Shown piece after piece: positions 29,493-64,000 of a stretch of DNA of 64,000 bases (positions are counted from its first letter, which is position 1; each line of letters opens with the position of its first letter). The notes beneath the pieces are model-generated. The model saw only the letters and a program-made list of their open reading frames with translations, was not told the origin of the DNA and ran no database searches. Source of the DNA: Mustelus asterias (lineage: Eukaryota). The DNA lies in the NCBI RefSeq assembly GCF_964213995.1, contig NC_135804.1, positions 68,634,001 to 68,698,000 on the forward strand, in the 5' to 3' direction. Both the position numbers and the translations under genes were made by a program.

Positions 29493-30747
29493 TTTTATCT
29501 TTTAAAAAGCATCTAGATATTTACATGGGTACGATGGGTATAGAGGGATATGGGCCAAAGGCAGGCAATTGGGATTAGTTTAGGGGTTTTTAAATAAAAG
29601 GGCGGCATGGACAAGTTGGGCCGAAGGGCCTGTTTCCATGCTGTAAGCCTCTATGACTCTAACTCACATTGAACAATATGGCCGTTTGCATATTATCATA
29701 TGCAGTCTGTATAATGAAACTTTGAGGCTGGAGAAATACATTTCTTAAGCGAAAGTGTCACGGCAACCAATGTGTTAAAAATGAACCCTCCCGAACCTCG
29801 GGTAAGGAAGCGAAATCATAGCCGAGTGCTGAAAACTGATCGGGCGGAGCGGGGCGAGGGCGGGGTGCCTGGAAATGTCATGGAGAATGCTCAGCAAATG
29901 CAATCTTCTCGGATTTCAGTTATTTCTTGGAAGGAGGATGGGTTTCGGACTGATCCTGTTTTTATTTTCTCTATTACGGTGTTTGGATGCAATACTCATC
30001 CTTCTGCTCAAGTTAGCATGGGAATCCAACGTCCATATAGACAGATTGAAGGCCGGGTGCCCATAATAAATCAGCACCTTAGTGGCCGTTCTTATCGAAG
30101 CAAAACGTGCTTTAAAGGTTTCTTCCACCTCGATCCCTGCTGCAGCTGTCGAGCACAGCACCCGACGCATTAAGGCAGGCACAAATAATCGGTTGAAATG
30201 AACGACTTCATCATATATTTTCCGTCATTTCCTTTCTTCAGCCAGCAGGGCTGCAGAACTTCGTGGCTTCTCCCCAAGCCCCATCCGGTCCAACACCATC
30301 TACCACCACCGCCCCCCCCCCTCCTCCCGCCCCCCGTCGCTGCCCACCGTCATCAGCGACACACACATACATCATTTTCTTGATATGCCCTCCTTGCCGC
30401 GTTTTATCCTAATAGATCAGAGCAAATGCTGGACAATTAATCAATTTTTACCTTGGTAGATTGAAGACTTTGCATCCTCCAGCTCCTCACAAACAAGCAG
30501 TCATTTCATGGACTGTCGCTCTGCTTGATCAAATTGTTCAGAATTTTGGCCAGTGTGGCAATTCCGTGCATTACTGTTCTCGGAATCATTTTCACAGGTG
30601 CCCGGTCTCACAATACTTTGTTTTCTCATTGAATCGCGGAGTTATGTGGCTTTGTATTGTATCATTGTTCTTGACAGATATTACCTGACCCCCCCCCCCC
30701 CCCCCCCACTCCTGCAATATGATGTCATTTTTATATTTTTCCCATAG

Positions 30748-31047
30748 GAACTTCAGTCAGAGTCACTCAGCTCCCCGAGAGAGTGAACACAAACACCGGT
30801 ACGAACATTTCCTTTCATTGCTCGCTTCCCTTCTTTCAAGATGGCCCACGTGTGAATGTAAACTGGTGGAAAAAGAGTGATAATCAATATCTAAGATCAG
30901 GGCAAAATTACAGAATAATAACTGGATTCAGCGACTTCCTTCGTATAATGAATGTGAGTGTGCAGGACACAGGAGTATACTATTGCATTGTCACGCATCA
31001 AGGCAAAACAGCTGGAAATGGAATAGGATCTAATTTAACAGTATGGG
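30748..31047 (+). CDS. Gene 1 exon: Ig V-set domain, germline-joined VJ type (NKp30/antigen-receptor-like)
   Basis: Pyrimidine tract + AG at 30746-47, phase 1; TSVRVTQLP...ISFHC...VNWWK...LRIMNVSVQDTGVYYC...GNGIGSNLTVW; phase-1 donor G|GTACGT. Confidence 0.9.
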
Positions 31048-31929
31048 GTACGTATAAGAAAAATGCGAGTGAGACCCAACTGACTGCAATATTTCACACT
31101 TCTAAGTGTTCCCACATGTGCTTTGATAGATTTTAATTGTAAATTAAATCCCACGATTAATGCAAAATAGATGAATAGATTCAAATTTGTGTTGAAGGCA
31201 TATTACAATAATTCGGTAATATTGGTCTGCTTTACCTGTTTAGAACTTAGTTGTTTATATTAAAATGCGCCCTAAATTTGGAGGCAGCAAACAATTGAAG
31301 TTAAAAATGCAGTGTTAGCTAATAAGGTGCATGTTTGAACAGTAGTATACACATGTGCCGATTTGCAGATAGATCGTATCTTATTTGGCATTTTAATTTA
31401 GTCGCATTGGTTACAGCTGATTAGAATTCAAAACCTCCCTATTTATGATATCATGGTCCATAGGAAATCGCCTATGACTAATTTTTAAATGTAGCACTCT
31501 TGAGCTACAGCCTCATATTTTCTTATAATTTTGGCCGCCAATAAATAAGATCATCCGGGATCTTGGTGCTGAAGTCTCACCTATTTGCTAAATATTTTCT
31601 AATCAATTTTTAGATTCAGATGTGAAAATCGCCTTCAGCGGAACAGCAAAATAGGCCAACAGCCCAAATTGTATCTAATTGCTTCCCGAGTAGAATAAAA
31701 GATTGAGCGAGATTTTAAATGGGTACGAACTCGCTTACATCCGCGTGTTTTTTTTTATTTTAGCCCGACGATAACAGTTTAAATTTCAAGCGAAATACTA
31801 CCGACACAGGTGAGAATGACCTTTAGGATATAATTAGAGATAATGCAACCTAACTCTCTGTCCTCCCACGACCCCACCAGCAATGGATTGGAACACAAAG
31901 TTTAGCTGGTAATCTGGATTAATGGTATT

Positions 31930-32345
31930 AACTATCACTGAGTTGGTATTACGCTCTCCTTTGTGAGGCACAAGGACCTTGGTTCAAAGCCCAGTCCAGG
32001 AGTTGAGTATAAATATCAAGGCTGACCCTCCAGTGGAATACTCCACGAATCCTGCACTGCCGGGGGTGCATTTCTTCGGATGAATTATTAAGCCTAGTCT
32101 CACTTTGCCGCTAGGGTGGATGTGAAAGATCCCGTATTTTGAAGAAGAGCAGGGGAGTTATCCCGGTGTCCAGGCCAATATTTCTCCTTCAATCAACATC
32201 GTAACAAACATGATCTGATTGTTGTTTTTTGCTGTTGCTGTTTTTGGAAGCTTCTGTTCACAAATTGGCTGCTAAATTTTCATCATTACAACAGTGACTA
32301 CATTTCCAACGTTCTGTTTGGTTGTAAAGCGCTCTGAGACGTCCG
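31930..32345 (+). mobile_element. Deu-domain SINE (SacSINE1/AmnSINE1-like) in the V-C1 intron
   Basis: tRNA-like head (GGTTCAAAGCCC) then GTGGATGTGAAAGATCCC...GAAGAAGAGCAGGGGAGTTATCCCGGTGTCCAGGCCAATATTT, recalled as the Deu-domain motif. Confidence 0.7.
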
Positions 32346-32386
32346 CAGTGTGAAACTACCAATCTTTCAATTCTTTATTGTTCTAG

Positions 32387-32698
32387 TTCCGTCAACAACA
32401 CTGAAAATTAACTCTCAGCAACTTGAAACGGATCCAGCTGCAACTCTTATTGTTCTGTGCACCACATCTCCTTTTCCCCCGAAGAATATTAGCTTCATTT
32501 GGTATAAGGATGGCGCTATAACTAAAATAGGGATAAATACCATCATTAAACCCAGCACCAATGGACTATATGAAGCTTCAAACCGGTTGCAAGAGACGCA
32601 ACCTGTCCGATCCCTAACTGTTTACACCTGCCTGGTCTTTCACAGTACACTCCAAATTCCAGCCATAACCACTCACATTGTCACCTACCCAAACACAG
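32387..32698 (+). CDS. Gene 1 exon: Ig C1-set domain
   Basis: TTCTAG acceptor, phase 1; LIVLCTTSPFPPKNISFIWYKDG...NGLYEASNRL...YTCLVFHSTL; donor G|GTAAG. Confidence 0.9.
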
Positions 32699-33184
32699 GT
32701 AAGATTGCAGGTCTCGGTTATTGCAGATTGAAGCGTTTCTGTGGCTCTCCCGGGTCAGTAAAATCTACTTTCTGATGTATTGTCCTATTTCCACACTTGT
32801 CAGCACATTTTAAATCCGCGAAAGTTAAGTTAATCGGTTTTAATCAAGTTTAATTCCATTTCAAAAGCTTCACGATTGCTGTTTCATCGTGCGTCTCTCC
32901 CAGGAATTCTGGAGTCACGGAGCAGGTGTGCAGCTGAGTCCTTGGGAAATAATTCCCGATTGATTCGTGGAGACAAAAACGCCCTTACCTGAATCCCACA
33001 ATCTGGGCTCAAAATCTGATGCAAATTGCCAAGTTACCAGTTAGACACTTTACAATATTAAATACTTCACATTGACATTTTCAATCGCAATCTCGTTACA
33101 AACAGCAAAGAAGATTAAATTGAGGTCTGAGAAAATATATTTTTCCATATAGCTGCACCGCCGTGAATAAAACGTTGAAGTAGC

Positions 33185-33410
33185 AAAGAGCCCAATATTT
33201 ACATAGCAACAGGTCCGTGCAGAAGGAAACAGAGTTGACATTTCGAGCCCAATATGACATTTCTTCAAATAATTCTAGTTTTCTTGAGTTCTCAAGTCAT
33301 ATTAGACTCGGAACGTTAGCATAGATGTTGCCAGATCCGCTGAGTATTTCCAGCACTTCCTGTTTTTATTAAATTCAGAATTCCAGACGCTACAACATTT
33401 TGCTTTTATC
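33185..33410. mobile_element. Old PLE family B-like inverted pLTR remnant in the C1-TM intron
   Basis: TTTCGAGCCCAATATGAC ... GTCATATTAGACTCGGAACG inverted pair, then GATGTTGCCAGATCCGCTGAGTATTTCCAGCA similar to family B. Confidence 0.55.
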
Positions 33411-33483
33411 CCATTACTTACTCACATTGGGTTTTAAAAAGGCATATGACTCATATTTTACATGTGTTTCATTAATATCTCAG

Positions 33484-33710
33484 TTCATGAAAGGCTCTTA
33501 CTGATTTCCAGATGTGCATGGGGTGGATTGGTCTTTCTAGTGGTGACTCTTGTCATTTGGAAACGATGTCAGTTCCAAAGAGATAATAAATGTTTTCTTT
33601 CGTTTAAAAATAGCGCGAAAGACAGGGTGGGGGGAGACTCTGTGGAACTCCAACGTAGACCATTGAGGCCGGCTGATCGTTTTCAATGCTGTAAATTCCA
33701 TGTAACCTAG
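33484..33710 (+). CDS. Gene 1 exon: transmembrane (Arg-containing) and short cytoplasmic tail
   Basis: CTCAG acceptor, phase 1 compatible with the C1 exon; HERLLLISRCAWGGLVFLVVTLVIW followed by KR stop-transfer; 3' limit (TAG at 33708-33710) uncertain. Confidence 0.75.
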
Positions 33711-38687: not shown

Positions 38688-39062
38688 TTTTTATTTCCGT
38701 TAACTGGCCTGAAAATCCGGCGGTTTTCCTGTTGGCTGAATATCTGACCGGGTTTATCAGCTCAATTGAGCGAATAAGAACATAAGAACATAGTAGCATA
38801 AGTAAATTCCTATTCTGTGTTCCTGTCCCTGCAGAGACACGCAGATGCCAAATCGCCTTCTGATGTAGCAGCAATGACCAGTTCCCGAAAGAACTCCAGC
38901 GATTAACATTAAAAGAAAGGGCCATTCCCATCGTGAATGGGAATAAGGAGACTGAGATCGCGCACCGTAAACGAAACACCATTGTGTTCAACGACTATAA
39001 TAAATTTCGTTTTAATAATGGACCAGTTTTCATGATGTATTTCCGATTTGCAGAGCCAGTTT

Positions 39063-47737: not shown

Positions 47738-50700
47738 ATTTGGCGAGGTTGCCCTCTTTTTAGGTCAAACCAAATAAACAAACTCAAATTAAGTCAGAAC
47801 AAAGTAAAAGGGTCAGCTCCCCAAAAAGGAGGGGGAACAGCCCGAACAGAAATCAAAGTACAAAGGAAACTTAAAAACATCAAATTAAAATGTGATTATT
47901 AGTGTCGATAACGCACCCCAACATCTGCGGTGCCCGGCGGGCACGGGAGGCATCAACCGCACCCGTGGACACCACATGCTCCTTCTCCAGGGACACCTGG
48001 TCGCGGACGTAGCCGCGGTAGAGGGGAAGACAGACAGGATGGACGGCCCCCTCGATCGCCCGCTGCCTGGACCGGTAAATGGCGCGTTTCGCCAGGCCCA
48101 GGAGCAGGTTCACGAGTAGGTCGCCATCCCAACCCTCCCCTCTCTGCACCGGGTGTCCATAGATCAGGAGCGTGGGACTGAAGTGCAGACAAAACATCAA
48201 TAAAAGGTTCTTCAGGAAAACATAAAGGGAGTGCAGCCTAAGCCATAAAACAGAGGCATGGTCCACGGACTCCACAAGGCCGCAGAAAGGGCAGTCTTCG
48301 GAGCCCGTGAACCAGTGAATTCTACGGTTGTGCGGAACTGCTGCATGCATCAACCTCCAACCCAGGTCCCCGACGTAATTGGGGGAGATCCCTTCGTAGA
48401 GGGACCTCCAGCGGGGATTTGGCGAGGTTGCCCTCTTTATAGGTCAAACCGAATAAACAAACTCAGGTTAAGTCAGGACAAAGTAAAAGGGGCAGCTCCC
48501 CAAAAAGGAGGGGGAACAGCCTGAAGAGAAATCAAAGTACAAAGGAAACTTAAAAACATCAAATTAAAATGTGATTATTAGGGTCAATAATGCACCCAAA
48601 CCCCTGCGGTGCCCAGCGGGCGCGGAAAGCATCAACCGCGCCCGTGGACACCGCATGCTCCCTCTCCAGGGACACCTGGCCGTGAACGTAGCCGCGGTAG
48701 AGGGGCAGACAGTCAGGATGGATGGCCCACTCGATCGCCCGCTGCCTGGACCGGTAAATGGCGCATTTCGCCAGTCCCAGGAGCAGGTTCATGAAGAGGT
48801 CGCCATCCCGACACTCCCCTCTCTGCACCGGGTGTCTGTAGATCAGGAGCGTGGGACTGAAGTGCAAACAAAACATCAATAAAAGGTTCTTCAGGAAAAC
48901 ATAAAGGGAGTGCAGCCTAAGACACACAACATAGACATGGTCCACGGACTCCACAAGGCCGCAGAAAGGGCAGTCTTCGGAGCCCGTGAACCAGTGAATC
49001 CTACTGTTGTGCGGAACTGCTGCATGCATCACCCTCCACCCCAGGTCCCCGACGTAATTGGGAGAGATCCCTTCGGAGAGGGACATCCAGCGGGGATTTG
49101 GTGAGGTTGCCCTCTTTTTAGGTCAAACCAAATAAACAACCTCAGGTTAGGTCAGGACAAAGTAAAAGGGTCAGCTCCCCAAAAAGGAGGGGGAACAGCC
49201 CGAACAGAAATCAAAGTACAAAGGAAACTTAAAAACATCAAATTAAAATGTGATTATTAGGGTCAATAATGCACCACAACCCCTGCGGTGCCCAGCGGGT
49301 GCGGAAACGTAAACCGCGTCCGTGGACACCGCATGCTCCCTCTCCAGGGACACCTGGCCGCGAACGTAGCCGCGGGAGAGGGGCAAGCAGTCAGGATGGA
49401 CGGCCCCCTCGATCGCCCGCAGCCTGGACCGGTAAATGGCGCGTGTCGCCAGGCCGAGGAGCAGGCTCACGAGGAGGTCGCCATCCCGCCCTCCCCTCTC
49501 CGCATCGGGTGTCTGTATATCAGGAACGTGGGACTGAAATGCAGACAAATCATCAATAAAAGGTTCTTCAGGAAAACATAAAGGGAGTGCAGCCGAAGAC
49601 ACACAACATAGACATGGTCCATGGAGTCTACAAGGCCACAGAAAGGGCAGTCTTCGGAGCCCGTGAACCAGTGAATCCACGGTTGTGCGGAATGGCTGCA
49701 TACATCACCCTCCACCCCAGGTCCCCGACGTAATTGTGGGAGATCCCCCCATAGAGGGACCTCCAGCGGGGATTTGGCGAGGTTGCCCTCTTTTTAGGTC
49801 AAACCAAATAAACAAACTCAGATTAAATCAGGACAAAGTAAAAGGGGCAGTCCTCAAAAAGGAGGGGGAACAGCCCAAACAGAAATCAAAGTACAATGGA
49901 AACTTAAAAACATCAAATTAAAATGTGATTATTCGGGTCAATAATACACCCCAACCACTGCGGTGCCCAGCGGGCGTGGAAGGCGTCAACCCTGCCCGTG
50001 TACACGGCATGCTCCCTCTCCAGGGACACCTGGCCGCGAACGTAGCCGTGGTAGAGGGGCAGGCAGTCAGGATGGACGGCCCCCTCGATCGCCCGCTGCC
50101 TGGACTGGAAAATGGCGCATTTCGCCAGGCCCAGGAGCAGGTTCACGAGGAGGTCGCCATCCCGAAACTGCCCTCTCCGCAACGGGTGTCAGTAGATCAG
50201 GAGCGTGGGACTGAAGTGCAGACAAAACATCAATCAAAGGTTCTTCAGGAAAATATGAACGGAGTGCAGCCTAAGCCATAAAACATAGACATGGTCCACG
50301 GACTCCACATGGCCGCAGAAAGGGCAGTCTTCGGAGCCCGTGAACCAGTGAATCCTACGGTTGTGCGGAACTGCTGCATGCATCACCCTCCACCCCAGGT
50401 CCCCGACGTAATTGGGGGAGATCCCTCCGTAGAGAGACCTCCAGCGGGGATTTGGCAAGGTTGCCCTCTTTTTAGGTCAAACCAAATAAACAAACTCAAA
50501 TTAAATCAGGACAAAGTAAAAGGGGCAGCTCCCAAAAAAGGAGGGGGAACAGCCCGAACAGAAATCAAAGTACAAAGGAAACTTAAAAACAGCAAATTAA
50601 AATGTGATTATTAGGGTCAATAATGCACCCCAACCCCTGCGGTGCCCAGCGGGCGCAGAAGGCGTCAACCGCACCCGTGGACACCGCATGCTCCCTCTCC

Positions 50701-53700
50701 AGGGACACCTGGCCGTGAACGTAGCCACGGGAGAGGGTCAGGCAGTCAGGATGGACGGCCTCCTCGATCGCCCGCTGCCTGGACCGGTAAATGGCGCGTT
50801 TCGCCAGGCCCAGGAGCAGGTTCACGAGGAGGTCGCCATCCCGACCCTCCCCTCTCCTCACCGGGTGTCCGTAGATCAGGAGCGTGGGACTGAAGTGCAG
50901 ACAAAACATCAATAAAATGTTCTTTAGGAAAACATAAAGGGAGTGCAGCCTAAGACACACAACATAGACATGGTCCACGGACTCCACAAGGCTGCAGAAA
51001 GGGCAGACTTCGGAGCCCGTGAACCAGTGGATTCTACGGTTGTGCGGAACTGCTGCATGCATCAACCTCCACCCCAGGACCCCAACGTAATTGGGGGAGA
51101 TCCCTTCGTAGAGGGACCGCCAGTGGGGATTTGGCGAGGTTGCCCTCTTTATAGGTCAAACCAAATAAACAAACTCAGGTTAAGTCAGGACAAAGTAAAA
51201 GGGGCAGCTCCCCAAAAAGGAGGGGGAACAGCCCGAACAGAAATCAAAGTACAAAGGAAACTTAAAAACATCAAATTAAAATGTGATTATTAGGGTCAAT
51301 AATGCACCCAAACCCCTGCGGTGCCCAGCGGGCGCGGAAAGCATCAACCGCGCACGTGGACACCGCATGCTCCCTCTCCAGGGACACCTGGCCGCGAACG
51401 TAGCCGCGGTAGAGGGGCAAGCAGTCAGGATGGATGGCCCGCTCGATCGCCCGCTGCCTGGACCGGTAAATGGCACGTTTCGCCAGTCCCAGGAGCAGGT
51501 TCACGAGGAGGTCGCCATCCCGCCCTCCCCTCTCCGCATCGGGTGTCCGTATATCAGGAACGTGGGACTGAAATGCAGACAAATCATCAATAAAAGGTTC
51601 TTCAGGAAAACATAAAGGGAGTGCAGCCTAAGACACACAACATAGACATGGTACATGGAGTCTACAAGGCCACAGAAAGGGCAGTCTTCGGAGCCCGTGA
51701 ACCAGTGAATCCTACGGTTGTGCAGAACGGCTGCATACATCACCCTCCACCCCAGGTCCCCGACGTAATTGTGGGAGATCCCCCCATAGAGGGACCTCCA
51801 GCGGGGATTTGGTGAGGTTGCCCTCTTTTTAGGTCAAACCAAATAAACAAACTCAGATTAAATCAGGACAAAGTAAAAGGGGCAGCTCCTCAAAAAGGAG
51901 GGGGAACAGCCCAAACAGAAATCAAAGTACAAAGGAAACTTAAAAACATCAAGTTAAAATGTGATTATTCGGGTCAATAATGCACCCCAACCAGTGCGGT
52001 GCCCAGCGGGCGCGGAAGGCGTCAACCCTGCCCGTGTACACGGCATGCTCCATCTCCAGGGACACCTGGCCGCGAACGTAGCCGTGGTAGAGGGGCAGGC
52101 AGTAAGGATGGACGGCCCCCTCGATCGCCCGCTGCCTGGACCGGTAAATGGCGCATTTCGCCAGGCCCAGGAGCAGGTTCACGAGGAGGTCGCCATCCCG
52201 AAACTCCCCTCTCCGCAGCGGGTGTCCGTAGATCAGGAGCGTGGGACTGAAGTGCAGACAAAACATCAATAAAAGGTTATTCAGGAAAATATGAAGGGAG
52301 TGCAGCCTAAGCCATAAAACATAGACATGGTCCACGGACTCCACATGGCCGCACAAAGGGCAGTCTTCGGAGCCCGTGAACCAGTGAATCCTACGGTTGT
52401 GCGGAACTGCTGCATGCATCACCCTCCACCCCAGGTCCCCGACGTAATTGGGGGAGATCCCTCCGTAGAGAGACCTCCAGCGGGGATTTGGCAAGGTTGC
52501 CCTCTTTTTAGGTCAAACCAAATAAACAAACTCAAATTAAATCAGGACAAAGTAAAAGGGGCAGCTCCCAAAAAAGGAGGGGGAACAGCCCGAACAGAAA
52601 TCAAAGTACAAAGGAAACTTAAAAACATCAAATTAAAATGTGATTATTAGGGTCAATAATGCACCCCAACCCCTGCGGTGCCCAGCGGGTGCGGAAGGCA
52701 TCATCCGCGCCCGTGGACACCGCATGCTCCCTCTCCAGGGACACCTGGCTTCGAACGTAGCCGCGGTAGAGGGGCAGACAGGCAGGATGGACGGCCCCCT
52801 CGATCGCCCGCTGCCTGGACCAGTAAATGGCACGTTTTGCCAGTCCCAGGAGCAGGTTCACGAGGAGGTCGTCATCCTGTCCCTCCCCTCTCCGCACCGG
52901 GTGTCCGTAGATCAGGAGCGTGGGACTGAAGTGCAGACAAAACATCAATAAAAGGTTCTTCAGGAAAACATAAAGGGAGTGCAGCCTAAGACACACAACA
53001 TAGACATGGTCCACGGACTCCACAAGGCCACAGAAAGGGCAGTCTTCGGAGCCCGTGAACCAGTGAATCCTACGGTTGTGCGGAACTGCTGCATGCATCA
53101 CCCTCCACACTATGTCCCCGACGTAATTGGGGGCGATCCCTCCATAGAGGAACCTCCAGCGGAGATTTGGCGAGGTTGCCCTCTTTTTAGGTCAAACCAA
53201 ATAAACAAACTCAGATTAAATCAGGACAAAGTAAAAGGGGCAGCTCCCAAAAAGGGAGGGGGAACAGACCGAACAGAAATCAAAGTACAAAGGAAACTTA
53301 AAAACAGCAAATTAAAATGTGATTATTAGGGTCAATAATGCACCCCAACCCCTGCGGTGCCCAGCGGGCGCGGAAGGCGTCAACCGCACCTGTGGACGCC
53401 GCATGCTCCCTCTCCAGGGACACCTGGCCGCGAACGTAGCCGCGGGAGAGGGGCAGACAGTCAAGATGGCCGGCCCCCTCGATCGCCCGCTGCCGGGACC
53501 GGTAAATGGCGCATTTTGCCAGGCCCAGGAGCAGGTTCACGAGGAGGTCGTCATCCCGTCCCTCCCCTCTCCGCACCGGGTGTCCGTAGATCAGGAGCGT
53601 GGGACTGAAGTGCAGACAAAAGATCAATAAAAGGTTCTTCAGGAAAACATAAAGTGAGTGCAGACTAAGGCACACAGCATAGACATGGTCCACGGACTCC

Positions 53701-56700
53701 ACAAAGCCGCAGAAAGGGCAGTCTTCGGAGCCCGTGAACCAGTGAATTCTACGGTTGTGCGGAACTGCTGCATGCATCACCCTCCACCCCAGGTCCCCGA
53801 CGTAATTGGGGGATATCCCTTTCTAGAGGGACCTCCAGCGGGGATTTGGCGAGGTTGCCCTTTTTTAAGGTCAAACCAAATAAACAAACTCAGGTTAAGT
53901 CAGGACAAAGTGAAAGGGGCAGCTCCCCAAAAAGGAGGGGGAACAGCCAGAACAGAGATCAAAGTACAAAGGAAACTTAAAAACATTAAATTCAAATGTG
54001 ATTATTCGGGTCAATAAGGCACCACAAACCCCTACGGTGCCCAGCGGGCGCGGAAAGCGTCAACCGCGCCCGTGGACACCGCATGCTCCCTCTCCAGGGA
54101 CCCCTGGCCGTGAATGTAGCCGCGGGAGAGGGGCAGGCAGTCAGGATGGACGGCCCGCTCGATCGCCCGCTGCCTGGACCGGTAAATGGCGCATTTCGCC
54201 AGGCCCAGGAGCAGGTTCACGACGAGGTCGCCATCCCGACCCTCCCCTCTCCGCACCGGGTGTCCGGAGATCAGGAGCGTGGGACTGAAGTGCAGACAAA
54301 AGATCAATAAAAGGTTCTTCAGGAAAACTTAAAGGGAGTGCAGCCTAAGACACACAACATAGACATGGTCCACGGACTCCACAAAGCCGCAGAAAGGGCA
54401 GTCTTCGGAGCCCGTGAACCAGTGAATCCTACGGTTCTGCGGAACTGCTGCATGCATCAACCTCCACCCCAGGTCCCCGACGTAATTGGGGGAGATCCCT
54501 CCGTAGAGAGACCTCCAGCGGGGATTTGGCGAGGTTGCCCTCTTTTTAGGTCAAACCAAATAAACAAACTCAAATTAAATCAGGCCAAAGTAAAAGGGGC
54601 AGCTCCCCAAAAAGGAGGGGGAACAGCCCGAACAGAAATCAAAGTACAAAGGAAACTTAAAAACATCAAATTAAAATGTGATTATTAGGGCCAATAATGC
54701 ACCCCAACCCCTGCGGTGCCCAGCGGGCACGGAAGGCATCAACCCCGCCCGTGGACACGGCATGCTCCCTCTCCAGGGACACCTGGCCGCGAACGTAGCC
54801 GCGGTAGAGGGGCAGACAGTCAGGATGGCCGGCCCGCTCAACCGCCCACTGCTTGGACCGGTAAATGGCGCGTTTCGCCAGACCCAGGGGCAGGTTCACA
54901 AGGAGGTCGCCATCCCGACCCTCCCCTGTCCGCACCGGGTGTCCATAGATCAGGAGCGTGGGACTGAAATGCAGACAAAACATCAATAAAAGTTTCTTCA
55001 GGAAAACATAAAGGGAGTGCAGCCTAAGACACACAACATAGACATGTTCCACGGACTCGAGAAGGCCACAGACAGGGAAGTCTTCGGAGCCCGTGAACCA
55101 GTGAATCCTATGGTTGCGCGGAACTGCTGCATACATCACCCTCCACCCCAGGTCCCCGATGTAGAGGGACCTCCAGCGGGGATTTGGCGATGTTGCCCTC
55201 TTTTTAGGTCAAACCAAATAAACAAACTCAGATTAAGTCAGGACAAAGTAAAAGGGGCAGCTCCCCAAAAAGGAGGGGTAACAGCTCGAACAGAAATCAA
55301 AGTGCAAAGGAAACTTAAAAACATCAAATTAAAATGTGATTATTAGGGTCAATAATGCACCCCAACCCGTGCGGTGCCAAGCGGGCGCGCAAGGCGTCAA
55401 CCGCGCCCGTGGACACCGCATGCTCCCTCTCCAGGGACACCTGGCCGACAACGTAGCCGCGGTAGAGGGGAAGACAGTCAGGATGGATGGCCCGCTCGAC
55501 CGCCCGCTGCCTGGACCGGTAAATGGCGCGTTTTGCCATGCCCAGGAGCAGGTTCACGAGGAGGTCGCCATCCCGACCCACCCCTCTCCGCACCGGGTGT
55601 CCGGAGATCAGGAGCGTGGGACATGAAGTGCAGACAAAACATCAATAAAAGGTTCTTCAGGAAAACATAAAGGGAGTGCAGCCTAAGACACACAAAATAG
55701 ACATGGTCCACGGACTCCACAAGGCCGCAGAAAGGGCAGTCTTCAGAGCCCGTGAACCAGTGAATCCTACGGTTGTGCGGAATTGCTGCATACATCACCC
55801 TGCACCCCAGGCCCCCGACGTAATAGGGGGAGATGCCCCCGTAGATGGACCTCCAGCGGGGACTTGGCGAGGTTGCCCTCTTTTTAGGTCAAACCAAATA
55901 AACAAACTCAGATTAGATCAGGACAAAGTAAAAGGGGCAGCTCCCCAAAAAGGAGGGGGGACAGCCCGAACAGAAATCAAAGTACAAAGGAAACTTAGAA
56001 ATATCAAATTAAAATGTGATTATTAGGGTCAATAATGCACCCCAACCCCTGCGGTGCCCAGCGGGCGCGGAAGGCATCAACCACGCCCGTGGACACCGCA
56101 TGCTCCCTCTCCAGGGACATCTGGCCGTGACCGTAGCCGCGGTTGAGGGGAAGACAGTCAGGATGGACGGCCCCCTCGATCGCCCGCTGCCTGGACCGGT
56201 AAATGGCGCATCTCGGCAGGCCCAGGAGCAGGTTCACGAGGAGGTCGCCATCCCGACCCTCCCCTCTCCGCACCGGGTGTCCGTAGATCAGGAGCGTGGG
56301 ACTGAAGTGCAGACAAAACATCAATAAAAGGTTCTTCAGGAAAACATAAAGGGAGTGCAGCCTACGACACACAACATAGACATGGTCCACGGACTCCACA
56401 AGTCCGCAGAAAGGGCAGTCTTCGGAGCCCGTGAACCAGTGAATCCTACGGTTGTGCGGAACTGCTGCATGCATCACCCTCCACCCCAGGTCCCCGACGT
56501 AATTGGGGGAGATCCCTCCGTAGAGGGACATCCAGCGGGGTTTTGGCGAGGTTGCCCTCTTTTTAGGTCAAACCAAATAAACAAACTCAGATTAAATCAG
56601 GATAAAGTAAAAGGGTCAGCTCCCCAAAAAGGAGGGGGAACAGCCCGAACAGAAATCAAAGTACAAAGGAAACTTAAAAACATCAAATTAAAATGTGATT

Positions 56701-58591
56701 ATTAGGGTCAATAATGCTCCCCTACCCCTGCGGTGCCCAGCGGGCGCGGAAGGCGTCAACCACGCCCGTGGACACCGCATGCTCCCTCTCCAGGGACATC
56801 TGGCCGCGACCGTAGCCGCGGTTGAGGGGAAGACAGTCAGGATGGACGGCCCCCTCGATCGCCCGCTGCCTGGACCGGTAAATGGCGCATCTCGGCAGGC
56901 CCAGGAGCAGGTTCACGAGGAGGTCGCCATCCCGACCCTCCCCTCTCCGCACCGGGTGTCCGTAGATCAGGAGCGTGGGACTGAAGTGCAGACAAAACAT
57001 CAATAAAAGGTTCTTTAGGAAAACATAAAGGGAGTGCAGCCTACGACACACAACATAGACATGGTCCACGGACTCCACAAGTCCGCAGAAAGGACAGTCT
57101 TCGGAGCCCGTGAACCTGTGAATCCTACGGTTGTGCGGAACTGCTGCATGCATCACCCTCCACCGCAGGTCCCCGACGTAATTGGGGGAGATCCCTCCGT
57201 AGAGGGCCATCCAGCGGGGTTTTGGCGAGGTTGCCCTCTTTTCAGGTCAAACCAAATAAACAAACTCAGATAAAATCAGGATAAAGTAAAAGGGTCAGCT
57301 CCCCAAAAAGGAGGGGGGACAGCCCGAACAGAAATCAAAGTGCAAAGGAAACTTAAAAACATCAAATTAAAATGTGATTATTAGGGTCAATAATGCACCC
57401 CTACCCCTGCGGTGCCCAGCGGGCGCAGAAGGCATCAACCGCGCCCGTGGACACCGCATGCTTCCTCTCCAGGGACACCTGGCCGCGAACGTAGCCGCGG
57501 TAGAGGGTCAGACAGTCAGGATGGATGGCCCCCTCGATCGCCCGCTGCCTGGACCGGTAAATGGCGCGTTTCGCCAGGCCCAGGAGCAGGTTCACGAGGA
57601 GGTCGCCATCCCGACCCTTCCCTCTCCGCACGGGTGTCCGTAGATCAGGAGCGTGGGACTGAAGTGCAGACAAAACATCAATAAAAGGTTCTTCAGGAAA
57701 ACATAAAGGGAGTGCAGCCTAAGACACACAACATAGACATGGTCCACGGACTCCACAAGGCCGCAGAAAGGGCTGTCTTCGGAGCCCGTGAACCAGTGAA
57801 TCCTACGGTTGTGCGGAACTGCTGCATGCATCACCCTCCACCCCAGCTCCCCGACGTAATTTGGGGAGATCTCTCCGTAGAGGGACCTCCAGCGGGGATT
57901 TGGCAAAGTTGCCCTCTTTTTAGGTCAAACCAAATAAACAAACTCAGATAAAATCAGGACAAAGTAAAAGGGGCAGCTCCCCAAAAAGGAGGGGGAATAG
58001 CCCGAACAGAAATCAAAGTACAAAGGAAACTTAAAAACATCAAATTAAAATGTGATTATTAGGGTCAATAATGCGCCCCAACCCCTGCGGTGCCCAGCGG
58101 GCGCGGAAGGCGTCAACCGCGCCCGTGGACACCGCATGCTCCCTCTCCAGGGACACCTGGCCGCGAACGTAGCCGCGGTAGAGGGGAAGAAAGTCAGGAT
58201 GAACGGCCCCCTCGATCTCCCGCTGCCTGGACCGGTATATGGCGCATTTCGCCAGGCCCAGGAGCAGGTTCACGAGGAGGTCGCCATCCCGACCCTCCCC
58301 TCTCCGCACCGGGTGTCCGGAGATCAGGAGCGTGGGACTGAAGTGCAGACAAAACATCAATAAAAGGTTCTTCAGGAAAACATAAAGGGAGTGCAGCCTC
58401 AGCCACACAACATAAACATGTTCCACGGACTCCACAAGGCCCCAGAAAGGGCAGTCTTCGGAGCCCGTGAACCATTGAATCCTCCGGTTGTGCGGAACTG
58501 CTGCATGCATCACCCTCCACCCCAGGTCCCCGACGTAATTGGGGGAGATCCCTCCGTCGAGGGACCTCCAGCGGGGATTTGGCGAGGTTGC
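47738..58591 (-). repeat. Tandem array: 16 x ~679-bp units, each the 3' end of a Tx1/L1-clade retrotransposon (zinc-knuckle ORF2 C-terminus + 3' UTR) plus a 15-bp spacer
   Basis: Frame ends (..NNHILI*) recur at 47880, 48559, ~49238, 49913, ~50592, 51271, 51949, 52628, ~53307, ~53986, 54666, 55324, 56004, ~56683, ~57362 and 58040. Protein PRWRSLY..DLGWRVMHAAVP..CPFCG..ESVDH...C.RL matches the Tx1-type zf-RVT region. Confidence 0.93.
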
Positions 58592-59240
58592 AACAAGGTC
58601 AACAGCTGAGTCGTTCTGACTGAATCCAAACTGAGTGTCAATGAGCAGGTTATTGCGAAGCAAGTGCGACTTGATAACACTGTTGATGTCCCCTTTCATC
58701 ACTTTGTTGATGATCAAGAACAGGCTAATGGGCTGGTAATTGGCTGGGTTAGATTTGTCCTTTTTTTCTGTACAGGACATATTTGGGTAATTTTCCATGC
58801 TATCGGGTGAATGTCAGTGTTGTGTCTTTACAGGAACAGCTTGGCTCGGGGCGCGGCAAGTTCTGGAGAACAAGTCCTCGGTACTATTGACGGAATATTG
58901 TCAGGGTCCAAAGCTTTTGCAGTATCCAGTGCCTTCGGTCGTTTCTTGATTTCAGATTAACTGGATAACACACAGCACTTCTGACTGAAGATTCGTGCAA
59001 ATACCTCAGCCTTAACACAGCGCTGATGTGCTGAGCTCCTCCATTATTGAGGATCGTGAAATTTGTGGAGCTTCCACCTCCAGTGAGTTGTTTAATTGGC
59101 CACCAACTTTCATGGCTGGATGTGGCAGGACTGCAGAGTTTAGATCGGACCAGTGGGTTGTGGAATTGCTCAGCTCTATTATTCCTTACGCTATTTGCCA
59201 CGCAGCTCGACTTGCGTTGTAGTTTCACCAAGTTGGAACC
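58592..59240 (-). mobile_element. Decayed CR1/L2-group LINE, apparent host of the array
   Basis: KKDKSNPANYQPISL...LIDTQFGFSQNDSAVDL; same type as the LINE at 8880-10025. Confidence 0.8.
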
Positions 59241-59669: not shown

Positions 59670-60307
59670 AGAGGGAATGTGAACAGACGTGATCGGAACA
59701 GAATCATTTGGAGCAGATTTATCTTAACATACCATCTTACTCATCGTTTTTCTGTCCCCTGAGTGGCAATGGGACCCCCTCCCCGCTGCCCACCAACCCC
59801 GACCATTCCTTTCTTTCTCTCTCCTATTCTTCTGCCTCACTGACTAATCAATGACTCTCTTCAATGTGCGAGCCAGTGACGTCCATGGGGATAAAGGCCA
59901 ATCAGTGGGGTTTCGCTTTAATATAAAATGACTGTCCTGCTGAAAAGGTTCCATCGCATTAAGGTTTACATGGTTTATCGGACAACAAATTTAAACACAC
60001 GACACAGCACCTCGCCACATTGCAACTCAGATTGGATAATCTACAAACGAATATTTCCAAACGATCAGAGCCGCGGTCCACCGTCCGATCAACAGCCATT
60101 TCACAATGTTTGTGAGTCAGTGCACATGGGCATTGCGGATTATTTACGAAGGTATTGCACATTCCAGTTGGGTCTGGGTCTATTGTTCATTTTGTTTCTT
60201 CGAACCAGTCTTATTGCGTCCTGCCTGCCTGTGACTGTGTCTCTCGACTTGTCTGCGGTTAAAGTAATTTATTTATATGTAATAACTACATTTTTAATAT
60301 TTTATAG

Positions 60308-60613
60308 TTCCTTCCACCTCAGTGTCGCAATCACCTGAAAGCATCATTCTAATGGCAGGTTCAGACATTACATTCCACTGTACAGCGAACTCCGTCTACA
60401 ATTACTCAGATGTTTATTGGTGGAAACTTGGCGACGAAACCTTATTACAACCGAATTCTGATGGCAGAAAGCGATTCTTTCCTTTTGAAAACGGAGCGAC
60501 TTCCTTCCAGATCCTGAATGTCCGTGTCCCCGACTCCGGATCCTATTACTGCGGAGTGCGAGACACAGGCAACAGGGTCCTGAATGGAACCGAATCCAAA
60601 CTTGCTGTGCACC
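60308..60613 (+). CDS. Gene 2 exon: Ig V-set domain, germline-joined VJ type
   Basis: TTTATAG acceptor, phase 1; SVSQSPE...ITFHC...VYWWK...FQILNVRVPDSGSYYC...NGTESKLAVH; donor C|GTAAGC. Confidence 0.9.
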
Positions 60614-60847
60614 GTAAGCGACTTTGGAGTGAGATGCGACTTCTGCAATTTCAGGAAGACCAATTCCAAAATAACAAAGCGAGGTGAGCGGGCAGCTCAT
60701 GAGGCATATTTTCAAATATTGTTAATAGTGAACGTCGTGTTCGTTTACATGTGAACATTTACACGTCAGGTTTAGCTGAAGTGCTTTAATAATATTGAAT
60801 GGCGTGGAAACTAACATAAATTTATTTGATCATTGGGTCATTTTTTT

Positions 60848-60980
60848 TATTCATGGGACATGGTCGTCGTTGGCTGGCCAACATTTATTGCCCATCCCTA
60901 GTTGCCCCTGAGAAGGTGATGGTGAACTACCTTCATGAATCGCTGCAGTCTACGTGCTGTGGGTTGATCCACAATGCCGT
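60848..60980 (-). mobile_element. 3' tail of the 8880-10025 LINE family
   Basis: Reverse complement of 9900-10020. Confidence 0.75.
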
Positions 60981-61390
60981 TTGACCCAATACCCATTGTA
61001 TTGCTTTATTTAAGATAACGAGAGTGATATTTAAATTCAGATTTCTTGTTATATCACGGTTATCACCCATTAAGATGTGGGTTATTATTCACGAATATAA
61101 ATAATAAATACTTCTGGGCTTCACGATCGAAAAGGGATCTGAAGCCGAAGTGCAGGCTGTAGTAGTAACATATAATGCTAAGTGACTGTCCACAAAGATG
61201 GACAACACATGAGTTTGTACAACCTATGGCATGGCTATACCTTGCATACTGCGTACAATGAAATCACCGACCTTCAGTCAGGCTACACAATTACTGTCGG
61301 CGGCGGAACAACTGGAAACTAACCGAACTGGAGCATCCTTCAGACATTTGGGGAACCGGCCTTATTTGCTTTGCAGCAGGGAAACGAAAA

Positions 61391-61691
61391 GCGGCACGGG
61401 AGCACAGTGGTTAGCACTGCTGCTTCACAGCTCTAGGGTCCCGGGTTCGATTCCCGGCTCGGGTCACTGTCTGTGTGGAGTTTGCACATTCTCCTCGTGT
61501 CTGCGTGGGTTTCCTCCGGGTGCTCCGGTTTCCTCCCATAGTCCAAAGATGTGCGGTTTAGGTTGATTGGCCAGGTTAAAAATTGCTCCTGGGATGCGTA
61601 GGTTAGCGGGTGAACATGTGGGGTGGGATTGTGGTCGGTGCAGACTCGATGGGCTGAATGGCCTCCTTCTGCACTGTAGGGATTCTATTCT
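61391..61691 (+). mobile_element. HE1-type SINE, near full length
   Basis: GCGGCACGG..CAGTGGTTAGCACTGCTGC..GGTTCGATTCCCGG..TGTGTGGAGTTTGCACATTCTC. Confidence 0.93.
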
Positions 61692-61779
61692 AAAGCACAT
61701 TGTAGATTTTATTTCTTCAGGTTATGAATAGAGTACATAATCCGAGAAAGATGGGCACAAAAACGACAAATAATAGTTA

Positions 61780-62007
61780 AAAGCAAATTACTGCGGCTGC
61801 TGGAATCTGAAACCAGAAGAGAAAATGCTGGAAAATCTCAGCCGGTCTGGCAGCATCTGTGAGGAGAGAAAAAAGCTGACGTTTCGAATCCAGATGACCC
61901 TTTGTCAAAGTTGATTAAGGGTCATCTGGACTCGAAATGTCAGCACTTTTCTCCCCTTGCAGATGCTGCCAGACCTGCTGAGATTTTCCAGCATTTTCTC
62001 TTTTTGG
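61780..62007. mobile_element. PLE family B palindromic insertion in gene 2 intron
   Basis: Inverted arms centred ~61910; TSD CAAATAAT(A/G)GTTA at 61767-61779 and 62008-62020. Confidence 0.85.
61874..61912 (-). ncRNA. Hammerhead ribozyme variant with U3-A8 core
   Basis: Reverse complement reads AACU-UUGACAA-A-GGGUC(AUCUG)GAUUC-GAAA-CG-UC-AGCU. Confidence 0.65.
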
Positions 62008-63755
62008 CAAATAATGGTTAGTGGCTAACATTTCACTGAAACAGAGATACTGAAATAGAGAAAATGATGAAAGTGAGAAAAAGACTATTCAATGGAGGTA
62101 GATTATGTGGATAATAGTAATTAAATCGATATTTGACGGACTGAGTGATGGGGACGTACTCTATTTTGGGTATGTTTAGCTGAACTGCTGTATAATCTCC
62201 GATTCTAAATGTTACTTGCAATTATTTCTGCACTTGTGACAAGGAAAGCAATTCGCGCTAATTTCATTAGAAAGTAATGCACAGAAACAGGCCGTTCGTC
62301 CCATCATCCCACTGCCGGCTCTTAGTAACAGCTATCCGCCCACTTGTTATTTCCAAACGACTGCACACATTTTCCTTCTTAATTATATCCACCTCCATTT
62401 TGAAAGTTAGCTTTCCAACACCCAATTAGGCAGGGCATTCCAGATCATCATAATAAGCCGCCGAAATTATGATTACAACAAATGTAATGCATGTAAAGTA
62501 AATTAAGGTATTTGCTTCTCATAGGTTTTACACTTGCAGAGATTGAACTGGCTATGACGGGAAAGAATGACAGAGACGGTGGACTAAACCCAGAAACATG
62601 AGGTTAATTGTGGTTATCAATTATGTACAAAAAAATCTCCTCGTCCTGTTTTTCTCGCCAATTATTTTATTCCCCTTTTGACACCAAAATTTTTGCTTTC
62701 ATTAATTCGAGCAAAGCCTCTCAGCAGTTTGGGCAGCTCGAGAAAAGCTCTCAACAACCTGTTCTGTTACAAGGATAACAATGCCAGTTTATTTAGCCTC
62801 ACCCCAAAACCGAAGTCCATGAACCTTAGTATTATTCTGGAAAAATCCCTCTGAACCCCAATTAAACCTCACATTTTTCACAAAGCATGATGTCCGGAAT
62901 TGGAATAACAATCCAACTGATGACGAACCAGTATTCATAAAGGCTTGCAGTAATAATATAGTTTTTAAAACTCTAGGCCTACATTGAAAACACCTATGTA
63001 TTTTGCTACCGTCAGAATGCATGGTAGCCTAAACCTATAAATGATTTGCATGTTAAATCTGTTGGAATCATATCACTTTTAATTTAGCAAATTAAATGGG
63101 AAACTGTTGTGCAGCATTCATACACTAAATACTGGAAGGTGTGATTTGTCAGGATGGAAGAGGCTGCATTATTCAGCTATTTCCCCCATTCAGCTGCACG
63201 GATGAACAGCTTAAATCTCACTTCCTGCCATTCACTCGAATCATTCTTTTCGGCAAATTGGTCTTTCTTTTGGGCGAAAACATTTTTTTTCTATCCTGAC
63301 AATATTCTGGGATCAATCTATCGGCTACTTGGACGTTATTTTCTCCGCATTTATTACAGTTCTTCAAGTGAACGATCACCTGAATACATTTTGTCTATTT
63401 ATTTAACACTACCTAATAACACAACTGACTAATAACATCATGTATCCTGTGTAAATAGAGCTCCTGCGCAAAGAGTTAACGACCTGAATATCCTGCCTCA
63501 ATGAAATATTTTCTGTTGTCACTGCATATATGCTTTGCTGGATCAACCATTATTCTAGCGCGTAATTGGATAATTGAATTAGTATTGGAAAGTAACTAAA
63601 GATTGAATTGTAACATTGCAAATTCTAACAGTGATTTATTTTACTGACTACGACTCCGAGTGTCGTGATTAGATGCAGCCAGGAATACTGAACGTCAAAC
63701 GAGATTAAGGTATATAAATCCAAACAATCAATGCTTTCATTTCACTGTTCCACAG

Positions 63756-64000
63756 CTTCCCCAGAACCCATGAGACTGATCTCCAAAGTGTCCCGTCCCA
63801 ACTCATCTACGCTAACACTTGTGTGTGAAACGTCTGTGTTCTACTCAGAATCTCTCAGCTTCACTTGGTACAAAAACGACAGCAACATTGTGACTGGGAT
63901 CAGCACCATTCAAACAGTCAATTCGGAGGGAATGTATTTAGCTTCCAGCAGTTTGAAAACGGCAGATCCAGCCCATAACGGTATTGTATATGCCTGGATG
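63756..64000 (+). CDS. Gene 2 exon: Ig C1-set domain (runs off the window)
   Basis: TTCCACAG acceptor, phase 1; SPEPMRLISK...LTLVCETSVFYSESLSFTWYKND...EGMYLASSSL...VYAWM; paralogous to 32387-32698; absent from the ORF track. Confidence 0.85.

Follow-up and report, generated by a model that had tools for sequence, protein, structure and literature searches.

The gene described here, which lies in a 64,000-nucleotide stretch of Mustelus asterias DNA (the window), belongs to a cluster of about 55 related genes. We consider it likely that it forms the activating half of a receptor pair, and its sequence predicts signalling through FcRgamma/CD3zeta-type adaptors via a transmembrane (TM) arginine. 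The copy in the assembly is probably a null allele. The family to which it belongs is a cluster of about 55 non-rearranging receptor genes, each with a V domain, a C1 domain and a TM segment.

Gene structure and the C4 clusters

All exons in the interval 30748..33710 are present, on the forward strand. A leader exon (30543..30597; 18 codons plus 1 nt), with ATT where paralogues have ATG, is followed by a compact V exon that includes a J-like G strand (30748..31047), a C1-set exon (32387..32698) and a TM exon (33484..33710). The hydrophobic part of the TM exon spans 33495-33560, with the Arg codon at 33510-33512 and a weak or lost donor at 33592. AG acceptors are found at the V, C1 and TM exons, GT follows the V and C1 exons in phase 1, and the spliced frame is stop-free; the three phase-1-compatible exons of the original prediction are thus borne out with exact bounds. 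Read-through of the TM exon leads to a stop at 33708-33710, and the resulting tail contains no Tyr. A short terminal exon can be proposed tentatively at 38829..38906 on the same strand, based on weak likeness to the last exon of the horn shark protein P0020 (tblastn E 0.017); it has no ITIM, and there is an AATAAA at 38999. The first reading of the sequence overlooked the leader exon, the in-frame losses in the V exon, the missing TM donor and the family of about 55 genes. A six-codon upstream open reading frame (30508-30528) sits directly before the leader and is preserved in both close paralogues.

In Pfam searches the V domain scores 34.6 bits against V-set (cut-off 26) and 38.1 bits against I-set. 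The second domain scores 28.3 bits against C1-set (cut-off 21) and, at E<=1, does not match C2-set, in agreement with the earlier assignment of this domain to the C1 type. Across the family, V exons match V-set and I-set in 24 of 24 cases and second domains match C1-set in 23 of 23. The predicted V fold has a pLDDT of 87.8, and the spacing between its two cysteines (55) lies within the family range of 54-59. The earlier claim that no recombination signal sequence (RSS) lies near the V exon also holds, as no RSS-like site was found on either strand in 30700-31250, whereas the same scan gave an RSS for seven of seven rearranging V controls from the same genome. One of the 52 family V exons scanned has a weak match. 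A rearranging Ig or TCR gene is ruled out by the lack of an RSS at the window V with all seven controls positive. A germline-joined Ig light chain is ruled out as well, given that the gene has no F-G-x-G, full-length V or secreted C domain ending in Cys.

The window V exon matches 57 places among 110 scored candidates, 56 of them on contig C4 (at 54.7, 58.8-60.0 and 67.7-70.0 Mb), and the best 55 of 150 scored C1 matches are all on C4, adjoining V matches. Intact exons were recovered for 52 V, 50 C1 and 43 TM segments from the 10-20 kb fetched for most genes, a span that misses more distant TM exons. Four single 10-kb stretches beside the clusters (L094-L097) were also scanned for family exons.

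A second family gene starts on the forward strand near the end of the window (60307..64000), with its V exon at 60307-60615 and a C1 exon that begins at about 63749 and leaves the window. In this gene, which the window and L044 cover, the C1 domain has Trp in place of the second Cys, and the close relatives L046 and L047 have a TM Lys, not Arg. Many close gene twins about 1.35 Mb apart link C4 68.0-68.7 Mb with 69.3-70.0 Mb, and represent either a segmental duplication or an uncollapsed haplotype. A subfamily (L073 and L106; P0057, P0072, P0111 and P0171) has a WWIY TM and a Cys-rich tail with C-x-x-C, which we take to resemble loosely the Lck clasp of CD4/CD8. Elsewhere in the window (47800-58600), a 679-bp unit that resembles the 3' end of a non-LTR retrotransposon open reading frame is repeated in tandem sixteen times.

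Proposed activating and inhibitory members

The TM Arg occupies the sixth position in the best hydrophobic segment of 21-22 amino acids, which is the NKp30-like place originally proposed for it, and it is conserved in horn shark and stingray. The genome contains two zeta-family adaptor (TCR_zetazeta) exons with a TM Asp, on C17 and C275, which we assume to be CD3zeta-like and FcRgamma-like. According to the available text of PMC6514059, NKp30 and NKp46 pair through a TM Arg with the Asp of FcRgamma/CD3zeta adaptors.

The two closest paralogues (68.59 and 69.96 Mb) combine a neutral TM with an exon that carries ITIM and ITSM motifs (LTYAAL/TEYAEL) about 18 kb downstream. Identity of the window copy to these two genes is 91% in V and 85-86% in C1 vs 38-41% in the TM; at the DNA level the likeness ends shortly beyond C1. 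No ITIM exon was found in the window; the 12 matches among 21 candidates are all in the C4 clusters.

The division into two signalling types extends across the family. At a single TM column, 17 of the 43 genomic TM exons found are charged (15 Arg and 2 Lys). Among 109 database proteins with the family C1, 82 have a TM and 13 of these have the Arg, including horn shark P0020 (LLISRCAWGG), stingray P0014 and chimaera P0027. Multiple ITIM/ITSM motifs (at least two) are absent from all 13 Arg proteins but present in 31 of the 69 others (p 0.0013), and a looser count of at least one motif gives 4 of 13 vs 41 of 69 (p 0.07); these p values are optimistic, as the rows include isoforms and paralogues and are not independent. 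The median tail is 33 amino acids in Arg proteins and 78 in the others. P0044 (L050) combines a TM Arg with a long ITIM tail. Its twin L049 has Met at the TM column, with a long ITIM-type tail in both genes, and it is possible that the two represent a switch in progress.

Other close genes differ mainly past the ectodomain. The pair L052/L054 is 97% identical in V and 98% in C1 but 49% in the TM. On trees of 36 genes, the charged TM state requires 11 changes on the V+C1 tree vs 4 on the short TM tree, and charged and neutral TMs are found together in seven ectodomain clades. Given the 11 vs 4 state changes, we infer that activating and inhibitory genes exchange ectodomains. Mean pN/pS within close groups is 0.45 for V and 0.40 for C1, and by this measure there is no average positive selection across either domain. 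The family combines clustered paralogues, near-identical ectodomains and opposite signalling modules, the hallmark of paired receptors of the immunoglobulin superfamily.

In the mechanism that we propose, an ATG allele of the window gene would produce a receptor of about 297 amino acids or less, the Arg form would pair with the TM Asp of an adaptor and signal through its ITAMs, and the ITIM form would recruit SHP-type phosphatases. The two forms would share their ligands or bind closely similar ones. Ectodomain exons may pass from one type to the other by gene conversion or exon shuffling, an exchange that would be expected if pathogens exploit the inhibitory form. The original view of the gene as an activating receptor survives in part: the Arg and the lack of an ITIM agree with it, but the gene belongs to the activating-type half of a large paired ITIM/Arg family rather than being a lone receptor, and the assembled allele has no start codon.

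Start codon and allele status

The first codon of the leader is ATT, where the two closest paralogues have ATG in the same context. No upstream ATG that reaches the leader in frame was found, and an in-frame Met does not occur before residue 86. Compared with the paralogues, the V exon has two in-frame losses, one of 9 nt at the start of the exon and one of 12 nt near 30925, an N-glycan sequon has been lost, and the TM exon does not have the canonical G|GTA donor present in most family TM exons. Several of these lesions (the start, the two in-frame losses, the sequon and the weak TM donor) also fit a decaying gene.

Base 30545 is covered by public contigs of X4 and X1/X2, and X3 gives no cover. 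In run X4, a 61-nt contig centred on this base has no difference from the window and so reads ATT; other X4 pieces differ. Sequencing error as the source of the ATT is ruled out by this contig, although the assembly itself could have been made from X4. In X1/X2 (one sample), all three overlapping contigs over the base differ from the window (1, 1 and 5 differences), which fits ATG, the letter being deduced from the difference counts; these runs may come from a related species or include a twin locus. X1/X2 sequence identical to the window upstream continues into the contig that fits ATG. Given ATT in one sample and ATG implied in another, the simplest reading is that the assembled copy is probably a segregating start-loss null allele, and that another individual probably still carries the ATG start.

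Alternatively, the window copy could be a fixed pseudogene, a former activating member that is decaying in all individuals. The ATT start with the late Met, the two in-frame losses, the lost glycan site and the missing donor are consistent with this, as is one X1/X2 contig that matches the donor-less TM region of the window copy with 0 differences. The twin of the window gene at 70.02 Mb (L043) is itself broken, without a leader and most of C1. We regard fixation as unlikely, however, given that all exons are open in frame, the V domain is predicted to fold well with a cysteine spacing typical of the family, and the X1/X2 upstream sequence leads into a contig that fits ATG. In addition, pN/pS relative to the 68.59-Mb paralogue is about 0.25 for V and 0.36 for C1, which indicates past purifying selection on the gene. 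A segregating null thus remains our preferred reading of the window copy.

Relationships to other receptor families

The family V domain is compact. Its Cys-Cys spacing of 54-59 compares with 65-73 in Ig/TCR V domains and 61 in VNAR. The F/W-G-x-G J motif occurs in none of the 52 family V exons, and 41 of the 52 have an N-glycan sequon in its place, a site that would probably impede antibody-style V-V pairing and that the window copy has lost. Foldseek and VIA comparisons of the V domain gave a tie of VNAR, VL, SIRP V, TCR V and NCAM Ig1 (Z 12.8-13.5), so the structural matches name no family. A predicted model of the whole chain matched antibody light chains only, and a V-profile search of solved structures returned mostly multi-domain I-set proteins.

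In trees built without PRARP or Xenopus VJC1 rows, the family forms one clade (support 92/90 for V and 98/96 for C1), and the constant domains of Ig group separately (97/92). In the C1 tree the sister of the family is a coelacanth V-C1-ITIM protein (P0186; 91/71). A coelacanth V-C1-TM-ITIM protein (P0161/P0186) and a turtle multi-V protein (P0154) stand beside the family in the C1 and V trees, at moderate support. None of the candidate sister groups (SIRP, the NKp30-like gene, Ig/TCR and the coelacanth protein) is rejected by AU tests (p 0.12-0.54).

From the perspective of antigen receptor evolution, it is possible to consider the family as the surviving sister of the gene that was split by RAG, and thus kin of PRARP, VJC1 or UrIg. 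The single-exon V with GxG, the C1-set domain, the leader split from V and the phase-1 exons would all suit such an ancestry, and AU tests leave the family grouped with Ig/TCR V (p 0.22) or with IgL C (p 0.12) unrejected. UrIg2 is the top solved-structure match of the window C1, but its score adds up several domains. We think this ancestry very improbable: a sequon commonly stands where F/W-G-x-G is absent, the V is about 10 residues shorter, and the Ig constant-domain clade excludes the family. Linkage to an MHC paralogon was also checked. C4 has 0 of 10 PBC and 0 of 28 proteasome matches (counts that are lower bounds), and FTO is on C4 at 42.9 Mb; we take PBX and proteasome genes to mark MHC paralogons and FTO to mark 16q. 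The original suggestion that the family lies close to a pre-RAG ancestor is therefore not upheld, given the compact V without the J Phe/Trp, the lack of PBX and proteasome matches on C4, and trees that leave the sister group unresolved.

Another possibility is that SIRP is represented in cartilaginous fish by this family, as a branch comprising two-domain forms with Arg in place of the Lys of SIRP-beta. Many members carry SIRP-like database labels, SIRP-alpha is fourth in the profile search of solved structures, ITIM and ITSM tails occur in the family, and AU tests do not reject a grouping with SIRP (p 0.23 for V and 0.37 for C1). We nevertheless consider this rather unlikely. The typical member has one C1 rather than two; a single C1 per gene was present in the fetched stretches, and P0008, with a duplicated C1, is the exception. 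Cysteine spacing is 60-66 in the SIRP-like rows, longer than in the family V, and the two groups separate in both V and C1 trees. The SEP domain (NSFL1C-type), presumably a marker of the SIRP region, has four matches on C7 and C20 and none on C4, although this is one marker and a lower bound.

Outside C4, the only match to the window V is an NKp30-like gene on C8 (L144, 7.15 Mb; E 8e-4 to the window V). Its four best solved-structure matches are all NKp30, and no C1 was found within 8.7 kb downstream; NKp30 is absent from the best 60 matches listed for the window V. This part of C8 (7.14-7.29 Mb) holds L144 and a second single-exon VJ gene, L145. Downstream of L144 a single hydrophobic segment was found, and it contains no Arg. 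When checked for orthology to characterised genes, the window gene thus proved to be neither the NKp30 locus, given that the NKp30-like gene is on C8, nor a gene with the V-C1-C1 layout of SIRP.

Mammals and bony fish have well-known paired innate receptors, but for sharks none is named in the available text of a fish immunity review (PMC6795676). Our literature search found no description of a shark V-C1-TM family, although Ohta 2019 may cover it, and the C4 cluster is undescribed in the available portions of PMC12227049, PMC10751288, bioRxiv 10.1101/2021.06.11.448072, PMC2442602, PMC11599192, PMC6514059 and PMC6795676. The named database relatives come from sharks, rays, skates and a chimaera under mixed automatic labels. 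The expectation of an under-described family is supported for cartilaginous fish. A family of about 55 genes with relatives from chimaera to rays and sharks offers candidates for signalling modules, and for markers, of NK or myeloid cells in sharks, and shows large-scale use of C1 domains in germline receptors. By itself it says nothing on the origin of RAG-based rearrangement, and the window copy is a damaged allele. It is conceivable, although we lean somewhat against it, that shark NK or myeloid cells use the cluster as their main paired-receptor complex, a functional counterpart of KIR, LILR and NITR built on a compact VJ plus C1, with on/off ectodomain swaps and segregating activating nulls, and maybe an old jawed-vertebrate lineage with the coelacanth V-C1-ITIM relative.

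Among known systems, the closest are the cartilaginous-fish V-C1-TM models in RefSeq and UniRef (P0001-P0032 and others), which represent the same family, with V identity of 63-71% and the same TM and tail types, under labels such as SIRP-like, Ig lambda-like, NCR3LG1-like, CD276 homolog and tapasin-related. SIRP-alpha and SIRP-beta are similar in having VJ-like and C1 domains, and ITIM/ITSM and activating forms with near-identical ectodomains. The family differs from them in its single C1, its size of about 55 genes and its N-terminal TM Arg; activating SIRP binds DAP12 through a TM Lys. NKp30 shares the GNGTG-like G-strand motif and a TM Arg near the outer leaflet, but is a single domain, whereas the window gene has a C1 exon.

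UrIg and UrIg2 likewise have a single-exon VJ followed by C1; in the available text of PMC12227049 they have three and nine or more C1 domains, respectively, form disulphide-linked dimers and map to the MHC or an antigen-receptor complex. The family, with one C1 rather than three or more and with ITIM and Arg signalling types, is neither of these. The NITRs of ray-finned fish are also clustered VJ receptors, mostly with ITIMs and some with a TM Arg, that evolve by birth and death (PMC2442602 and bioRxiv 10.1101/2021.06.11.448072, available portions), and the latter source, in the same portion, reports no NITR homologues found in cartilaginous fish. The second domain of NITRs is described there as I-type; it contains six Cys and ends in a J-like stretch. 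In this family it is C1-set in all 23 cases, with two conserved Cys, which rules out NITR as the identity of the cluster.
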